Below are positions 2,833 through 62,008 of a stretch of 64,000 nt of DNA, piece after piece. A program made the position numbers and the translations under genes. This stretch comes from Candidatus Parcubacteria bacterium. GTDB lineage: Bacteria > Patescibacteriota > Minisyncoccia > Phycocordibacterales > UBA6065. The stretch spans positions 58,409-122,408 of the forward strand of contig JBDKKJ010000007.1 in the NCBI GenBank assembly GCA_039796155.1, in the 5' to 3' direction. Position 1 is the first letter of the stretch, and every line of letters begins with the position of its first letter. The notes beneath the pieces were generated by a model. That model saw only the letters and a list, made by a program, of their open reading frames with translations, ran no database searches and was not told where the DNA came from.

Positions 2833-2908
2833 GCCACCTTAGCTCAGTTGGTAGAGCAGCACATTCGTAATGTGAAGGTCCCGAGTTCGATCCTCGGAGG
2901 TGGCTCCA
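2833..2908 (+). tRNA. tRNA-Thr(CGU), CCA encoded
   Basis: GCCACCT-TA-GCTC-AGTTGGTA-GAGC-A-GCACA-TTCGTAA-TGTGA-AGGTC-CCGAG-TTCGATC-CTCGG-AGGTGGC-T-CCA. Confidence 0.9.
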
Positions 2909-2975
2909 GGGGCAAACCCTCGATTTTTTGGGCAAGATATGCTTAAATAGTCGAGCGGTAAAGAATATAACAATT

Positions 2976-3049
2976 GCGGGTGTAGCTCAGCTGGTTAGAG
3001 CGCTTCCCTGTCACGGAAGAGGCCGTGGGTTCGAGTCCCATCACTCGCG
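2976..3049 (+). tRNA. tRNA-Asp(GUC), CCA not encoded
   Basis: GCGGGTG-TA-GCTC-AGCTGGTTA-GAGC-G-CTTCC-CTGTCAC-GGAAG-AGGCC-GTGGG-TTCGAGT-CCCAT-CACTCGC-G. Confidence 0.9.
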
Positions 3050-3053
3050 CAGA

Positions 3054-3077
3054 AAAACCGCTTAAAAGCGGTTTTCT
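3054..3077 (+). terminator. Intrinsic terminator after the plus-strand tRNA cluster
   Basis: AAAACCGC-ttaaaa-GCGGTTTT followed by T-rich tail. Confidence 0.7.
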
Positions 3078-3100
3078 ACTATAAATTCAGACAAAAAATG

Positions 3101-3174
3101 TGTCGGCGGAAGGACTTGCACCTTCGACCTTAGCTTTATGAGTGCTATGCTCTAACTACCTGAGCTACGCCGAC
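3101..3174 (-). tRNA. tRNA with CAU anticodon, most likely elongator tRNA-Met
   Basis: Reverse strand GTCGGCG-TA-GCTC-AGGTAGTTA-GAGC-A-TAGCA-CTCATAA-AGCTA-AGGTC-GAAGG-TGCAAGT-CCTTC-CGCCGAC-A. Paired 1:72 and no G-C run in the anticodon stem, so not an initiator. Ile2(CAU) cannot be excluded. Confidence 0.75.
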
Positions 3175-3417
3175 TTATTGCTATTCACCAAACCCTCTAT
3201 AAGACCCAGTATCCTATACTTTAAGCCAGTTCCGTCTCTAAACTGGTTTGGTGGTAATCCTAGCAGAATAGACAAAAAATTCAAAACTTCTCGTGAAAAT
3301 AAATATTCGACATATCACAAAACTTTGACATATTACCTAATTACATTTTGTAATTATAAACGTGAAAGAAATACTATTCCCTCTCCGTAATATCTATGTG
3401 TCCTTCTCATAGTGATA

Positions 3418-3454
3418 GAAAACAGCGATCCTCTGATCGCTGTTTTCTATTTTT
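3418..3454 (+). terminator. Strong hairpin plus T-tract 35 nt upstream of the 3489 CDS (terminator/attenuator)
   Basis: GAAAACAGCGATC-ctct-GATCGCTGTTTTC followed by TATTTTT. Confidence 0.6.
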
Positions 3455-3488
3455 GAAATTATAAGGGGTAGCAGCACGTACTAACAGT

Positions 3489-3998
3489 ATGGAACCACAA
3501 CATTCGAAGAACACAGCATATTACTGGGTACAAGGAATAATCGTCGTGGCCGTTATTGCAGCTTTTATATACTTTAATTCGGGTGCAACAAAGACACCTA
3601 CAGACACTGCGTCGGACGGGACATCTGACACTACGGCACCTACCTCAATGGTAAGTCCTTATGGATCAGTCACTCTAAAAATTGGTGAGACGGCAAATTT
3701 TCGTGGAATTTCTATCACGCCACTTAAGGTTGAAGAAGACAGTCGCTGTGCAAAAGATGTTCAGTGCGTATGGGCAGGTACTGTAAAGGTAAGTGTTCGC
3801 TCTGACCTTGCTTCAGGCAAAAGTCCTATAAACATGATTACCCTCGGCCAGAAAACTACTGTCGACACCTTCTCTGTTGGTCTTACAGCAGTCGTTCCTG
3901 AAAAGCTCTCAACGAGCACTATAAGCACTTCAGATTATCGTCTCACCTTCGAAGTACACCAGAGTTCTGTTGTAGACGAAGAATTAATCGGAAAGTAA
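3489..3998 (+). CDS. Hypothetical exported/membrane-anchored protein
   Basis: 169 aa; N-terminal TM (YYWVQGIIVVAVIAAFIYF), T/S/D-rich linker, beta-rich C-terminal part with 2 Cys. No family recognised. Confidence 0.55.
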   Translation: MEPQHSKNTAYYWVQGIIVVAVIAAFIYFNSGATKTPTDTASDGTSDTTAPTSMVSPYGSVTLKIGETANFRGISITPLKVEEDSRCAKDVQCVWAGTVKVSVRSDLASGKSPINMITLGQKTTVDTFSVGLTAVVPEKLSTSTISTSDYRLTFEVHQSSVVDEELIGK

Positions 3999-4006
3999 TA
4001 AAAGAA

Positions 4007-4032
4007 AAAGCCGCCCTTACGGGTGGCTTTTT
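4007..4032 (+). terminator. Intrinsic terminator of the 3489 gene
   Basis: GCCGCCC-ttac-GGGTGGC followed by TTTTT. Confidence 0.7.
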
Positions 4033-4040
4033 CATACTTG

Positions 4041-4114
<74 letters not shown>

Positions 4115-28022: not shown

Positions 28023-28115
28023 TGGCGGAGACGGAGGGATTCGAACCCTCGGAGCCTTATTAAAGGGCTCGCCTCTTTAGCAAAGAGGTACATTCGACCA
28101 CTCTGACACGTCTCC
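28023..28115 (-). tRNA. tRNA-Ser(GCU), CCA encoded
   Basis: Reverse strand GGAGACG...CCTCT-TTGCTAA-AGAGG, long variable arm (CGAGCCCTTTAATAAGGCTC), GAGGG-TTCGAAT-CCCTC-CGTCTCC-G-CCA. Confidence 0.85.
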
Positions 28116-30541: not shown

Positions 30542-32255
30542 AGGTCTCAGTACTCTTCTGAGATTCAATTATCTGAATATATTCTGGCGAAGAGTTTACA
30601 AGGTGAGTGTGGGTACCCTGAGCCAGTACTTCCCCTTCCATAAGAAGAATAATCTTTTCAAAGTGTTCAACCGCGCGCACCTTTTGTGTAACAGAGACAA
30701 TCGTAATGCCCGGATAATTCTTTTCAACGTTTGAAAGAATCTTTCGTTCGGTTGCGGTATCCACACGCGCCGTAAAATCGTCGAGCAAAAGCACTCGAGG
30801 GTTGATAGAAAGCGCACGAGCCAACATGATGCGCTGTTTCTGTCCGCCTGAAAGACTCGTCCCTCGTTCAGAAACAATGCTATCGAGACCTTTTGGAAGT
30901 GTTGAGATAAAATCGGAAAGTTCAGCAGTGTCTATCGCCTTCTTAACATCTTCGTCTTTAGCGGTTGGGCTAAAGGCAATATTTTCGCGGACGCTCATGT
31001 TAAACATCACGCTGTCCTGGAACACCAAAGCGACCTGAGAGTGAATCGTTTGTCTATCGTATTCAGCAAGCGGTTTGTCGTCATACAGCACCGTACCCGA
31101 TGTTGGATGCACGAGACCAATCAATGTATAGAGAAGCTGTGTCTTGCCTGCTGCGGTTGGACCAATAATCGCAGTCTTGGTTCCCGCTTTAATCTTAAAA
31201 GAAACATTACGAAGAGCATGCTTGTCAGCAAATGTTAAATTCACACCCTTTGCCTCGATCTCTCCTCGAATAGCTGTTGTGATAGTACCTGTCTCCTTCT
31301 CTACCGGCGCATTGAGGATGCTCGCGATACGCACATACGATTCTTGTGCTCTCGAAATAATATTTGATACGAAGCCGAGCATGATAATAGGAAAAATAAG
31401 AATGATGACGTAGCTGTTGAATGCCGTGAAATCACCGAGCGAAAGCGAACCACCAATAACAAACTTTCCTCCCAGGGCGAGGATGATAAGCATCGCGAGG
31501 TTGGCAATGATTCCAACCGATGGAATAACAATTGAGAAAAGCCCCAGAATCTTCATACTGTTATCACGTGAATTCTTGTTTTCTACATCAAACTTTTCCA
31601 GTTCTTTATTCTGAGAATTGAAAACTCGAATCAAAGCAGCGCCGATGATGCTTTCACTAATAATTGCGTTTAATCTGTCGATGATTTCCTGAGATTTTTT
31701 AAAGAGTGGACCCAGCTTTGAAAAAACGAGAAAGAAAATTACTCCAATCACCGGCAAAATAGCCAGAACAGCAAGGGCGAGCCGCCAATCAATAGTCAAA
31801 AGAAGCGCAGCTGAACCCACTATGAGCACAACCGAAGAAATAATAATCACGACCGCTTGTGATATGAATGATTTCACCGCATCAATATCAGACGTGAGGT
31901 TGGTGAGGAGTTTTGATTCAGTCTCCTGCACAAGTCGGGCAAAACTGAATTCAGAAATCTTTAATATAAGGTTTTGTCGCATGTCTCGAGCTGCGCGTTC
32001 TGCAGCATATGTCTGAAACACACCCTGAAGGTACGTGAACAGAAAGACTCCGAACGATACAATAGCGAACTGAAGACCCAGGGTTCCAGCATCAAAGCCC
32101 CCTTTCGCATAGGTGTCGATTGCTTTAGAAATTAGCTTTGGAATAATGAGGCTGAGCGCATTACCCGCAAGCGTGAGAATGAGAAGCGTAAAAATTAAAA
32201 ACTTGTAGGGCTTTACGATTGCAAAAATACTTGGTTTGCCGCTCTTTTCTTTCAT
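30531..32255 (-). CDS. ABC exporter, fused TMD-NBD (MdlA-like)
   Basis: NBD motifs GPTAAGKTQ, LSGGQKQR, VLLLDDFTA. Start at 32255 (MKEKSGKPSIF) avoids overlap with the divergent gene. Confidence 0.85.
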   Translation of the reverse strand: MKEKSGKPSIFAIVKPYKFLIFTLLILTLAGNALSLIIPKLISKAIDTYAKGGFDAGTLGLQFAIVSFGVFLFTYLQGVFQTYAAERAARDMRQNLILKISEFSFARLVQETESKLLTNLTSDIDAVKSFISQAVVIIISSVVLIVGSAALLLTIDWRLALAVLAILPVIGVIFFLVFSKLGPLFKKSQEIIDRLNAIISESIIGAALIRVFNSQNKELEKFDVENKNSRDNSMKILGLFSIVIPSVGIIANLAMLIILALGGKFVIGGSLSLGDFTAFNSYVIILIFPIIMLGFVSNIISRAQESYVRIASILNAPVEKETGTITTAIRGEIEAKGVNLTFADKHALRNVSFKIKAGTKTAIIGPTAAGKTQLLYTLIGLVHPTSGTVLYDDKPLAEYDRQTIHSQVALVFQDSVMFNMSVRENIAFSPTAKDEDVKKAIDTAELSDFISTLPKGLDSIVSERGTSLSGGQKQRIMLARALSINPRVLLLDDFTARVDTATERKILSNVEKNYPGITIVSVTQKVRAVEHFEKIILLMEGEVLAQGTHTHLVNSSPEYIQIIESQKSTETYEH

Positions 32256-36007: not shown

Positions 36008-36081
36008 TGCGCCCACATGGACTCGAACCATGGACCCCCGAGGTATAAGCTCGATGCTCTAACCAACTGAGCTATGGGCGC
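36008..36081 (-). tRNA. tRNA-Ile(UAU)
   Basis: Reverse strand GCGCCCA-TA-GCTC-AGTTGGTTA-GAGC-A-TCGAG-CTTATAC-CTCGG-GGGTC-CATGG-TTCGAGT-CCATG-TGGGCGC-A; anticodon TAT. Confidence 0.8.
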
Positions 36082-39388: not shown

Positions 39389-39778
39389 GGGGATGATCGG
39401 CCTAGACATATGGTTCCCTTTCTTTTGTGCGCGATAGAGCACCAGTAACTCTTTAATCTGCTGGAAACATCAAATGCAAAAAACACCGTTTCTCCGTTTT
39501 TCGGAGCTAAGGATTTTTCATTCGCTTACGCAATAGCCTAAGCGACGTTGGCACACTCGCATTTCTGGCGCGGTGTTCACCAGTGTTATAAATCCAGGAT
39601 AGAACATGATGTGCCTCCGTCTGTTCGAAGAGCTTCGGCTCATTGGCTCGGCGCCTGTACGTTTTGCGTGTCCTAAAGTACACCCGCTCAAATTCCCTTC
39701 TGGGATAAAGATCCGCTACATCGCGTAGAAACACTAGAAAGCATCATGTGCATCCGAGTTCGATTCTCGGCATCTCCA
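39389..39778 (+). ncRNA. ssrA: tmRNA (SsrA), one-piece
   Basis: 5' GGGGATGATCGGCCTAGAC pairs with 3' ...GGCATCTCC-A; T-arm CCGAG-TTCGATT-CTCGG. Tag ORF from GCA at 39476 to TAA at 39539-41 encodes AKNTVSPFFGAKDFSFAYAIA. Confidence 0.88.
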
Positions 39779-39786
39779 CATACCAA

Positions 39787-60039: not shown

Positions 60040-60429
60040 TTACCAAATTTGGAAGAGGACCTCACCGCCGACCTTTTCTTTACGTGCTTCATCATCCGAA
60101 AGGATACCCTTTGGAGTAGAGACGAAAGTTGAACCGAAGCCCTGCTTTACCTGATGGATTTCAGAGTAACCCTTGTAAAGTCGCTTTGAAGGCTTTGAAA
60201 TTCGCTTTACATCGTTGATGCGAGCGTGTCCGTTTACGTAGATAAGACCTACTTCGAGAGTCTTCTGTATACCCTTACCCTTTTTCTGAGCAGGCTTTAC
60301 GAAACCCTTACGAGCGAGCGCCAGCGCTACTGACTCTGTAAAGTTTGAATGTGGCATTGCAACAGTTTCCTTCTTTGCAGCGGAACCGTTCTTTAACTGA
60401 ATGATGAGATGTGAGATTGAATCTTGCAT
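60040..60429 (-). CDS. rpsH: 30S ribosomal protein S8
   Basis: 129 aa; DSISHLIIQLKNG...GGEVLFQIW. Confidence 0.92.
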   Translation of the reverse strand: MQDSISHLIIQLKNGSAAKKETVAMPHSNFTESVALALARKGFVKPAQKKGKGIQKTLEVGLIYVNGHARINDVKRISKPSKRLYKGYSEIHQVKQGFGSTFVSTPKGILSDDEARKEKVGGEVLFQIW

Positions 60430-60499
60430 GTTGTTTAGCGTCTAGTTTGCGGTCGTGACTTGAATGTTCTTCCGCACCCTACTGCCTAAATAATAATGT

Positions 60500-60685
60500 C
60501 TACCAAGACGATTTCTTTATACCTGGAATGAGGCCATCGTTGGCGAGCTCTCGGAAACAAATTCGGCACACGCCGAAGTCTCGCATAAATCCGTTCTTTC
60601 GCCCGCAGCGGAAGCAACGTCGTACAATTCTCGATGAGAACTTTGGTTTCTTATTAGCTCGTGCTATTACTGATGTTTTTGCCAT
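60500..60685 (-). CDS. rpsN: 30S ribosomal protein S14, zinc-binding type Z
   Basis: 61 aa from [16 protein letters not shown]; CFRCGRK...CRICFRE Cys motif. The ORF-track N-terminal extension is not credible. Confidence 0.9.
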
Positions 60686-60732
60686 TTTTTCCGTGGTGTA
60701 AATAAAAAAGCCTTGAAAAAGCTTGTCCAGGC

Positions 60733-60761
60733 ATACTAGCAAACGAATTACAGGCTGTCAA
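60733..60761 (-). promoter_or_regulatory. Sigma70-like promoter re-starting rpsN-rpsH-rplF... after the inserted cassette
   Basis: Minus strand TTGACA (60756-61), 17-nt spacer, TAGTAT (60733-38). Confidence 0.55.
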
Positions 60762-60775
60762 ACCTGTTACCTCCC

Positions 60776-60883
60776 TCCCTCATATTCTGCCTATCTGGGG
60801 CACGCGTCACGGGTCCCTAACCCATGCGCTCACTCTCGGCCCGTCGGCCTGCGAGAGCCCCCATCCAGGCAGAATATGAGGGA
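60776..60883 (-). ncRNA. Unassigned 108-nt GC-rich structured element (17-bp terminal inverted repeat enclosing a three-way junction); RNA or DNA-level element, strand tentative
   Basis: TCCCTCATATTCTGCCT (60776-92) is the perfect complement of AGGCAGAATATGAGGGA (60867-83). Inside: TGGGG/CCCCA, hairpin CTCTCG..GGCC-GGCC..CGAGAG, and hairpin GCGC..GGGT-ACCC..GCGT. One G-T pair on the minus strand would be an A-C mismatch on the plus strand. Confidence 0.45.
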
Positions 60884-60898
60884 AAGATAAAGAGTATG

Positions 60899-60926
60899 TT
60901 GACTCGTTGTTATTAGTTGCTAGTAT
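60899..60926 (+). promoter_or_regulatory. Sigma70-like promoter facing the 3' end of the toxin gene
   Basis: TTGACT (60899-904), 16-nt spacer, TAGTAT (60921-26). Confidence 0.45.
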
Positions 60927-60932
60927 AGACAT

Positions 60933-61014
60933 ACAAACGGCCTTCGGGCTTTGATTTACTAAGGTAAATCAGGAAAAAAAAAGCGGTCAAAGCAAGTCTT
61001 TGACCGCTTTTCTT
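60933..61014 (+). ncRNA. Candidate ~80-nt sRNA convergent with and antisense to the 3' end of the MazF-like gene
   Basis: Downstream of the promoter: hairpin GCC-ttcg-GGC (60940-49), hairpin GATTTAC-taag-GTAAATC (60953-70), an A9 linker, and a 10-12-bp terminator hairpin GCGGTCAAAG-caagt-CTTTGACCGC (60983-61007) + TTTTCTT. No ATG. Confidence 0.4.
60974..61010. terminator. Bidirectional intrinsic terminator at the toxin gene 3' end
   Basis: Hairpin 60983-61007 flanked by A9 (T9 on the minus strand) and TTTTCTT on the plus strand; includes the toxin stop codon. Confidence 0.75.
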
Positions 61015-61379
61015 ATAACCTTAAAGGAAAACTCTTCTGTAAAACCAATTTTATTAATAAGTCTTTTTACACTCATGAGTCGTATTTGAGAGATAATAGC
61101 AGTTCGCTTCTCCCCTTCCTGGCTTATGCATTCAACATAATATGGATTACTTTTATGTTTCGTGGAGAGTGGTATGGCCCAAAATATGTACTGATTAAAC
61201 TTTTTAAGCACAATAATTGGCCTGCTAAATAGACCTCCTTTACCGTCCTGTTCATAACCAATATTTGCACCCAATCTACTCCACCAAATATCACCCTCTT
61301 TGAAATAAAGATTAGACTCACCAACCTGGCAATCAATTGATTCTTTTTGCTCGCCCCATGTTTTAAAGTCTTTTTTCAT
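60987..61379 (-). CDS. MazF/PemK-family toxin-like protein (solo, no adjacent antitoxin ORF)
   Basis: 130 aa; EGDIWWSRLGANIGYEQDGKGGLFSRPIIVLKKF...AIPLSTKHK...AIISQIRLMSVKRL follows the PemK/MazF pattern (GDIW..L....G.EQ.G..RP..VL....PLT/S....Q.R). Confidence 0.6.
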   Translation of the reverse strand: MKKDFKTWGEQKESIDCQVGESNLYFKEGDIWWSRLGANIGYEQDGKGGLFSRPIIVLKKFNQYIFWAIPLSTKHKSNPYYVECISQEGEKRTAIISQIRLMSVKRLINKIGFTEEFSFKVIRKAVKDLL

Positions 61380-61423
61380 AGAACCAGTTTACAGAAGATA
61401 AGATAAAGTAAAGATAAAACATA

Positions 61424-61453
61424 AAGCAAAAACCACCTTGCGGTGGTTTTTGC
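61424..61453 (-). terminator. Intrinsic terminator directly after rplE (interrupts the spc operon)
   Basis: Minus strand AAAAACCACC-gcaa-GGTGGTTTTT + GCTTTATGTTTT, 7 nt after the rplE stop. Confidence 0.8.
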
Positions 61454-61459
61454 GGAGTA

Positions 61460-62008
61460 TTATTTTGCAGATTCTGTCTTCTTGATTGGGAATCCGAGGA
61501 GTTCGAGGAATTTCTTTGTCTGATCCTTTGGCTTCAAGTTTGTGAGAACTGTGATACCAAGACCGAACACATCCTTCAATTCTTCTTCAGAACATTCAGG
61601 GAAAATAGTGTTTTCCTTGATTCCGATTGAGTATCCACCCATTCCGTCAGCTGATGTTGATGGGAGTCCGCGGAAGTCCTTTGTTCGAGGGAGAGCAATG
61701 TTTACAAGCTTCTCGAGGAAGTGCCACATCTTTGCACCTCGGAGAGTAACCTGGTAGCCCATAGGATCTCCTTCTCGGCTCTTGAATGATGCAATAGATT
61801 TCTTTGCACCTCGGAGAACTGACTTCTGACCTGTGATTTTCATCAATCGGTCGCCAGCGAGTTCAACCTTCTTCTTATCACCAAAAGATCCAACACCCAC
61901 GGTTACAACAACCTTGAGCACCTTTGGAGCTTGCATAGCGTTTGTGAATCCGAATTGCTTCTTCATCACTTCGAATGCGTCAACCTGTTTTTCTTTAAGA
62001 GTTTTCAT
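61460..62008 (-). CDS. rplE: 50S ribosomal protein L5
   Basis: 182 aa; NAMQAPKVLKVVVTVGVG...YSIGIKENTIFPE. Confidence 0.92.
   Translation of the reverse strand: MKTLKEKQVDAFEVMKKQFGFTNAMQAPKVLKVVVTVGVGSFGDKKKVELAGDRLMKITGQKSVLRGAKKSIASFKSREGDPMGYQVTLRGAKMWHFLEKLVNIALPRTKDFRGLPSTSADGMGGYSIGIKENTIFPECSEEELKDVFGLGITVLTNLKPKDQTKKFLELLGFPIKKTESAK

Follow-up and report, generated by a model that had tools for sequence, protein, structure and literature searches.

A solitary MazF-fold gene and its convergent small RNA: a probable toxin–antitoxin module at a variable ribosomal protein gene junction in Candidatus Parcubacteria

In the textbook view, MazF is a type II toxin that is restrained by MazE proteins. 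A 64,000-nucleotide (nt) stretch of the Candidatus Parcubacteria contig JBDKKJ010000007.1 (hereafter the window; coordinates given without a locus name are positions within it) raises the question of how a protein of this family is kept in check when no such partner gene adjoins it, and of why its gene should lie between two ribosomal protein genes. On the minus strand of the window the order is rplX, rplE, a gap of 774 nt (60686-61459), rpsN, rpsH, and rplF, and the gap contains an open reading frame (ORF) of 130 amino acids (aa) that an initial annotation of the sequence had described as MazF/PemK-like. In the largest families of toxins, solo genes are in the majority, and small RNAs have been proposed as their stand-in antitoxins (Makarova et al. 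2009). Here, we analyze this locus and its relatives and suggest that it is likely to hold a self-contained module of type I-like architecture, in which a MazF-fold toxin is accompanied by a small RNA (sRNA) that is most likely its antitoxin, and that this module occupies a permissive slot. All of the features described by the initial annotation are present at the positions that it gave them; their interpretation, in several respects, has had to change.

The nature of the protein is readily established. The ORF (60987-61379, minus strand) matches the Pfam profile PF02452 over positions 1-108 of 109 (E 4e-9; 37.1 bits compared with a cut-off of 23.1). An AlphaFold2 (AF2) model, built from an alignment of 34 relatives, has a predicted local distance difference test score (pLDDT) of 84.8 and a predicted template modeling score (pTM) of 0.80, and the 50 best Foldseek matches to it in the PDB are MazF without exception (target-normalized template modeling scores of 0.59-0.80). 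When aligned with Escherichia coli MazF by hhalign, R53-P54 falls on R29-P30, P70-L-S72-T73 on P50-C-T52-T53, and E43 on E24; R29 and T52 are catalytic residues of the E. coli enzyme, and R53, P54, and P70 are invariant in the 34 relatives. The protein is thus a member of the MazF/PemK family with a MazF fold and conserved catalytic residues, in agreement with the initial annotation, and it can be considered a putative endoribonuclease toxin. Its score against the NCBIfam MazF equivalog model is only 18 bits of the 120 needed, and it is therefore not an ortholog of E. coli MazF. In the same alignment there is a 5-residue insertion in the loop between beta1 and beta2, and the family has an extra N-terminal helix, absent from canonical MazF, that carries three further invariant residues (F5, W8, and K12). 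This family is large, comprising 422 clusters at 50% identity (E <= 1e-30). An identical protein is recorded in a metagenome-assembled genome (MAG) of Candidatus Parcubacteria, and the close homologs, where the source names the organism, belong to the Parcubacteria/Paceibacterota; remoter members are found on plasmids of Campylobacter, Helicobacter, and Nitratiruptor and in Campylobacter prophages.

The conventional answer to the first question would be an adjacent antitoxin gene. The 80 nt upstream of the toxin are taken up by the intrinsic terminator of rplE (61426-61453, minus strand; a 12-bp stem and a T-run, located by an inverted-repeat and terminator scan) and by a candidate -10 box, TAAACT (61386-61391), 6 nt before the ATG, and by nothing else. 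Nor does a partner emerge from the family as a whole. Relatives of the toxin gene occupy many different sites, among them one downstream of recG, one between dnaE and rnhB, and one that follows a Mur ligase gene, and in the 71-73 loci with enough flanking sequence for neighboring ORFs to be clustered, no conserved family was found among the same-strand ORFs of 40-160 aa that abut the toxin. The clustering yielded 63 singletons, the few clusters being derived either from near-identical contigs or from frames that cross the conserved noncoding stretch of the sRNA. The PADLOC models of defense systems gave no match. The view that no MazE-like or other protein antitoxin is encoded here was already part of the initial annotation; these ORF comparisons extend it to the toxin family, which shows no sign of a conserved protein partner. 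A type II MazEF operon was accordingly rejected, an adjacent protein antitoxin gene being present neither at the locus nor in the family. Also rejected as an antitoxin was a frame of 41 codons from the ORF list (60807-60932, minus strand): it has no Pfam match, it is not conserved, and the palindrome through which it runs is absent from L085, the locus with the closest ortholog of the toxin.

It could be argued that such a solo MazF is restrained by a distantly encoded protein or by its own N-terminal helix, or that it is a nontoxic housekeeping ribonuclease (RNase) of the Parcubacteria. Solo MazF genes with trans-acting antitoxins are indeed documented; the solitary MazF-mx of Myxococcus xanthus, for example, is encoded without an adjacent mazE and is restrained by MrpC, the product of a distant gene. 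The family-specific helix, with its invariant F5, W8, and K12, is also in keeping with this argument. However, the patchy occurrence of the family, its variable location, its tandem paralogs, and its plasmid and prophage copies are the marks of an accessory mobile module rather than of a housekeeping gene, and a close relative, L005, has no such gene at the same site. Moreover, unlike MazF-mx, the toxin of the window travels with a dedicated RNA gene, and the argument leaves a covarying sRNA gene at every copy without an explanation. We consider it quite improbable.

This RNA gene is the constant companion of the toxin. In about 80 loci that contain relatives of the toxin in unrelated contexts, nearly all have the same convergent module downstream of the toxin gene. 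On the strand opposite the toxin, a TTGAC sequence is followed, after a spacer of ~17 nt, by an often TG-extended TAnnnT, and ~7 nt further on by a near-invariant YAYAAAYG. There follow two hairpins, the first with a cUUCGg closure and the second variable in sequence, and then an A-rich linker and a terminator hairpin. The last of these is built from the codons of the toxin's C-terminal KAxKDLL, its stop codon, and the CCGC that comes after it; A- and T-runs flank it on both sides, and hence it can serve both strands. Across 45 aligned loci no variation occurs at the TTG of the -35 or at the T, A, and final T of the -10, and the spacing of the promoter is fixed at 16-18 nt. A covariance model (CM R1) built from these 45 loci gave 82 matches at a threshold of E < 1e-4, held-out toxin loci included, and none in the searched loci that have an rplE gap without a toxin. 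The same region is represented in Rfam by nothing more than sub-threshold matches of terminator type over the 3' end of the toxin. Where toxins are arranged in tandem, as the three of L137 (196-1856) and the two of L114 (2254-3476), each of these diverged paralogs has its own convergent sRNA module. The coupling of toxin and sRNA module is therefore one to one, across unrelated hosts and within tandem arrays.

The modeled structure and the strand on which it is formed can both be judged from the pattern of substitutions. In the alignment fitted to the model, 93.7% of the cells are paired, a share that falls to 67.6% in shuffles and does not exceed 54% with slid partners, and compensatory changes occur in all 20 of the 20 modeled pairs of that fitted alignment. 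On the strand antisense to the toxin, G-U exceeds A-C by 128 to 20; the loop of the first hairpin is UUCG in 66 of the 82 matches and that of the second is GNRA or UUCG in 57; and these special loops exist in the antisense orientation only. The excess of G-U together with the UUCG and GNRA loops indicates that the RNA strand is the one antisense to the toxin. A reading of this conserved 3' region as an integron attC site was also considered and was rejected: an attC site would be one long imperfect hairpin between inverted core sites (RYYYAAC/GTTRRRY), whereas this region has three separate helices and a promoter of fixed 16-18-nt spacing. No paired attC core sites were evident by eye, nor did the examined flanks show an integrase, although no search was aimed at integrases.

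In the window, the model scores 106 bits over a predicted sRNA of ~84 nt (60933-61016, plus strand), whose ends are deduced from its promoter and terminator and which folds into the three expected hairpins with a minimum free energy (MFE) of -33.1 kcal/mol (z -6.2). It would consist of a 5' ACAAACG (60933-39), the cUUCGg hairpin (60940-49), the second hairpin (60953-70), the A-rich linker (60971-82), and the terminator. Its candidate promoter (60899-60926, plus strand), located by motif scan and by conservation, has a -35 TTGACT (60899-60904) and a -10 TAGTAT (60921-60926) with a spacer of 16 nt. A promoter scan of the single sequence taken by itself found three sites when 3.6 were expected, which is not above chance; the sites are taken as real because they are conserved across about 80 loci. 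The terminator hairpin (60976-61014, both strands; repeat arms 60976-60992 and 60998-61014) encloses the stop codon of the toxin (60987-60989) and corresponds to helix 3 of the covariance model, where there are 12 pairs with compensatory changes in all of them. That the toxin ends within a bidirectional terminator had been recognized in the initial annotation, which went on to guess that the toxin is controlled by a transcript of ~80 nt from the opposite strand. The comparative data now back this guess strongly, and there is a homolog whose convergent sRNA has been mapped. There is one other match to the model in the window, at 3323-3465 (plus strand; 20.7 bits, E 0.05); no toxin ORF adjoins it, and it is probably a chance arrangement of a promoter and a terminator.

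The transcript of the toxin can be outlined in a similar way. In 37 of 83 loci the ATG is preceded, at a distance of 6-8 nt, by the end of a TAnnnT hexamer, compared with a background of 2.8 per offset, and a Shine-Dalgarno-like core is present in only five of the 83. The proximity of the hexamer to the start codon and the rarity of such cores suggest that the toxin is probably translated from a leaderless mRNA that has its own promoter. In the window this mRNA would end in the shared terminator, probably near 60975, and since the terminator is bidirectional, the predicted sRNA would match the final ~40 nt of this mRNA with perfect complementarity.

The only member of the family for which a convergent transcript has been mapped is remote. 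The gene pVir0047 (CJJ81176_pVir0047; 405 nt) of the C. jejuni 81-176 plasmid pVir encodes a PemK homolog that is 36% identical to the window protein over residues 5-108 and that shares, as read from its sequence, the N-terminal F..W...K motif, the RP motif, and PLSS. It is a solo gene, the only one on pVir annotated as toxin–antitoxin-like, and RefSeq labels it type II. Between pVir0047 and pVir0048 lies a convergent 77-nt sRNA, CJpv3 (31119-31043), which is Northern-positive, and the toxin mRNA has a leader of 26 nt (Dugar et al. 2013). The transcription start site (TSS) of CJpv3 at 31119 (minus strand) has a step height of 16,164, which no other of the pVir rows examined surpasses (Dugar et al. 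2013), and it lies 1 nt from the start that we had derived, as an estimate, from the position of the -10 box. According to two articles (PMC10470494 and PMC7826846, both citing Shen et al. 2016), pVir encodes a type I system whose antitoxin, cjrA, is an antisense RNA. That the toxin of this system, cjpT, is pVir0047 is a strong lead and not a fact. The two systems have in common a homologous solo PemK protein, a convergent sRNA (very abundant and of 77 nt on pVir), and control by an antisense RNA, reported on pVir and predicted for the window, and on this analogy the window system is probably related to cjrA/cjpT. There are differences as well. By our own reading of the sequence, the three hairpins of the Campylobacter sRNA are different ones, and its 3' end stops about 5 nt before the stop codon is reached; the Campylobacter toxin mRNA has the leader mentioned above, whereas the genes of the Candidate Phyla Radiation (CPR) look leaderless. 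A homolog on a Nitratiruptor plasmid has the same layout, a 5' AUAAAUC included.

These data are brought together most simply by a module of ~0.5 kb (61391-60899) within the 0.77-kb gap, with two parts. The first would be a MazF-fold endoribonuclease toxin with a promoter of its own and a leaderless mRNA; the second would be a convergent, structured sRNA of ~84 nt whose transcription stops at the same bidirectional terminator and that most likely, to judge from the comparative pattern, neutralizes the toxin as its antitoxin. It could do so by either of two routes. Antisense pairing at the shared terminator may destabilize or silence the toxin mRNA in the fashion of type I systems, or the sRNA may bind the toxin directly, through its single-stranded 5' AYAAAYG and the cUUCGg hairpin, in the fashion of type III systems; the two routes may also act together. 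Pairing with the toxin mRNA may explain the action of the sRNA only in part, because the overlap with that mRNA does not include the two best-conserved segments, the 5' AYAAAYG and the UUCG hairpin, and because the module moves between very different hosts, among which the toxin is the only constant partner that could read these segments. MazF proteins bind short single-stranded motifs, and the one conserved in the sRNA would lend itself to being recognized by the toxin directly.

Several points weigh against this interpretation. The promoters and transcript ends in the Parcubacterium are deduced from sequence, and covariation was counted on an alignment fitted to the model, so that the counts lean towards the model. 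The overlap in cis extends for only about 40 nt and is mainly the terminator hairpin. Between the 5' part of the sRNA and the 5' end of the toxin mRNA there is no added cognate complementarity (-14.9 compared with -15.0 kcal/mol, p 0.56), and a second interaction of the kind used by par was rejected, cognate and noncognate duplex energies being alike. The AYAAAYG motif, considered as a possible cleavage site of the toxin, is not depleted in the toxin ORFs, where it was observed 5 times with 6.8 expected, in a test of low power. Finally, CM R1 has no match at the Campylobacter or Nitratiruptor sRNAs, so the case for homology of the RNAs across phyla comes solely from their layout.

Some of these same facts could be turned to a different account, in which the convergent sRNA is real and is not an antitoxin. 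It might serve the RNase as substrate or regulator, it might act on targets of its own and be processed by the PemK-like protein, or it might be a transcriptional insulator of the cassette, the control of the toxin lying elsewhere. The location of the most conserved RNA parts outside the overlap would fit such roles, as would the lack of additional antisense complementarity. Against them are the strict one-to-one coupling in unrelated hosts and in tandem arrays, the want of any other conserved partner, and the RNA antitoxin that the articles cited above report on pVir, where the homolog carries an sRNA of this sort. We therefore think a non-antitoxin role unlikely. A bolder proposal is that a large MazF-fold family, extending from the Parcubacteria to the plasmids and prophages of the Campylobacterota, is neutralized by a structured sRNA that acts mainly by binding the toxin, through AYAAAYG as a 5' pseudo-substrate and through the cUUCGg hairpin; the N-terminal helix may recognize this RNA. 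We offer this only tentatively and regard it as rather doubtful. If true, a type I architecture would here be joined to a type III mechanism, and the long-noted excess of solo MazF genes would be explained in part.

How, then, does the proposed toxin–sRNA module compare with the known classes? The initial annotation knew of no described arrangement like it, a statement that can no longer stand: convergent antisense RNAs with a shared bidirectional terminator are a classic type I device, and the pVir homolog has an sRNA of this kind. In RNA I-RNA II of par/Fst (pAD1) and in txpA/ratA and bsrG/SR4 of Bacillus subtilis, the two RNAs are convergent and overlap at their 3' ends, and in par the toxin mRNA and the antitoxin RNA share a bidirectional intrinsic terminator, much as the hairpin at 60976-61014 would serve both strands in the window. 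Like these, the locus has a cis-encoded gene for an antisense RNA that overlaps the toxin transcript, its transcription being verified only for the C. jejuni homolog. The toxins of those type I systems are small hydrophobic membrane peptides, whereas that of the window is a soluble MazF-fold RNase of 130 aa; par also makes use of complementary repeats at the 5' ends, for which no counterpart was found in the window system. With the type II systems MazEF and PemIK (Kis-Kid) there is identity of toxin family, fold, and catalytic residues, but the window system has an RNA partner instead of a MazE/PemI-like gene, in addition to the extra helix and the 5-residue insertion. In the type III systems ToxIN and CptIN, too, a MazF-related RNase is paired with a structured noncoding RNA. 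There, however, the RNA consists of tandem repeats that lie upstream on the same strand, with a terminator in between, and that are processed by the toxin, whereas the window RNA is single-copy, downstream, and convergent, and no tandem array is present in 60400-61600.

In the literature that was searched, we found no description of a coupling of toxin and sRNA across an entire family. An sRNA-coupled subfamily of MazF would explain one large group of orphan MazF genes in concrete and testable terms, and the covariance model can be used to annotate their missing partner. It would likewise be the likely family context of the single case that has been studied experimentally, that of C. jejuni pVir. 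To our knowledge, almost nothing is known of RNA regulation in the CPR, and the module offers a rare conserved regulatory sRNA from these bacteria.

The second question, that of location, was approached by comparing 80 related species-level genomes, in 63 of which the gap between rplE and rpsN can be measured. The flanking genes of the window are rplE itself (ribosomal protein L5; 61460-62008, minus strand; ORF with matches to Pfam Ribosomal_L5 and L5_C) and an rpsN that encodes an S14 protein of 61 aa and of the zinc-ribbon type (60500-60685, minus strand; PF00253, E 1.9e-22). Among the measurable gaps the distance ranges from 24 to 1944 nt and is at least 400 nt in 30, and a further 11 loci yielded no rpsN within 2.5 kb. 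The adjacent junctions reach at most 284 nt (L24-L5) and 198 nt (S14-S8). The cargo elsewhere consists of hypothetical proteins, a DksA/TraR zinc finger, a multi-HTH protein, a receiver domain, and an aspartyl protease, most of it without a Pfam match, and unrelated cargo occupies the slot in more than 30 genomes. The junction between rplE and rpsN is thus a hypervariable permissive slot across the Parcubacteria lineage, a fact that matters for any binning or phylogeny based on the synteny of ribosomal protein genes.

The regulatory signals at the junction are older than the cassette. In the window, rpsN is preceded by a promoter, TTGACA-N17-TAGTAT (60733-60761, minus strand), found by motif scan, and by a leader hairpin followed by a U-run (60700-60723, minus strand), which is conserved in relatives with base changes in both arms of its stem. 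Comparable sigma-70-like promoters precede rpsN in 45 of the 63 relatives, including 25 of the 33 with gaps of less than 300 nt; a hairpin with a T-run is present in the rpsN leader of 35 of the 63, usually downstream of the promoter; and an rplE terminator is found in several relatives that have no insert. Since relatives free of an insert have the rpsN promoter, the operon must already have been divided in the lineage, and the restart promoter was not brought by the cassette. The leader hairpin may be an attenuator or an autoregulatory leader through which a ribosomal protein acts on rpsN-rpsH. These observations overturn the initial view that the cassette split the spc operon and equipped it with new terminators and promoters. 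We suggest instead that the module resides here because the junction was already a break in the operon, a terminator followed by a promoter, and hence a permissive slot.

A specific embedding in the spc operon, by which the cassette split it with imported signals and is functionally tied to the ribosomal machinery that it targets, does find some encouragement in the recurrence of the toxin family. The family has entered the slot independently in at least five lineages (window/L085, L004, L012, L107, and L116), which by rough estimate, without a computed test, is above chance among hundreds of intergenic sites. Such repeated entry is as expected for a general insertion hotspot, however, and this explains the recurrence. 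Only three of the 84 loci retrieved by similarity to the toxin adjoin rplE, most sampled members being elsewhere; the slot carries unrelated cargo in the many genomes counted above; and the rpsN promoter and leader are present in insert-free relatives. We find it extremely improbable that the module is tied to its location in this way, and the link to ribosomal target machinery drawn in the initial annotation is best abandoned.

The contents of the slot in some of the closer relatives deserve mention. L004 is the closest relative by L5 (95% identity), and the toxin in its slot (3625-4089) is 39% identical to that of the window. Its ORF is 24 codons longer, by an extension that appears, by eye, to enter the sRNA region, and the sRNA promoter (TTGACT-N16-TATACT) is still recognizable. 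This suggests either a replacement of the cassette or fast divergence within the slot. The slot of L005 (3041-3633) holds a strong promoter, TTGACT-N17-TATAGT, followed by ~480 nt with no ORF longer than 73 aa and no Rfam match; a degraded toxin was looked for in this gap and not found, and the stretch may be an undescribed noncoding RNA gene. In three other genomes, L006 (3126-3527), L009 (3133-3573), and L018 (3133-3561), the slot holds a conserved family of proteins of 133-146 aa (MSENTLI...LPWR...), of which a single member, that of L006, was scanned, without a Pfam match.

The gap also contains a Y-shaped palindromic element of 108 nt (60776-60883, minus strand; arms 60776-60800 and 60859-60883), which had been counted as part of the toxin arrangement. 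It folds with an MFE of -79.4 kcal/mol on the minus strand (z -7.9), 17 kcal/mol better than on the plus strand, with a closing stem of 22-25 bp, and it has no Rfam match. Beyond the window it occurs only in L004 (4137-4329), where it is longer and has extra arms, and in L005 (3634-3742). As a candidate for an RNA antitoxin it was rejected: it is known from these three loci only, it is cleanly absent from L085, and it is present in the toxin-less L005. By this distribution it is a separate feature and no part of the toxin module.

The toxin–sRNA cassette is itself flanked by a direct repeat, TTTATCTTT, at 61410-61418 and 60883-60891 (minus strand). A motif resembling TTTATCTTT is also located upstream of the toxin in L004 and L085, and the repeat could be a target-site duplication or a part of the toxin promoter. 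In the window as a whole, the only Rfam families that reach their gathering scores are tmRNA and the tRNA of six genes (39389-39781, plus strand; 2833-4114; 28026-28115; 36008-36081).

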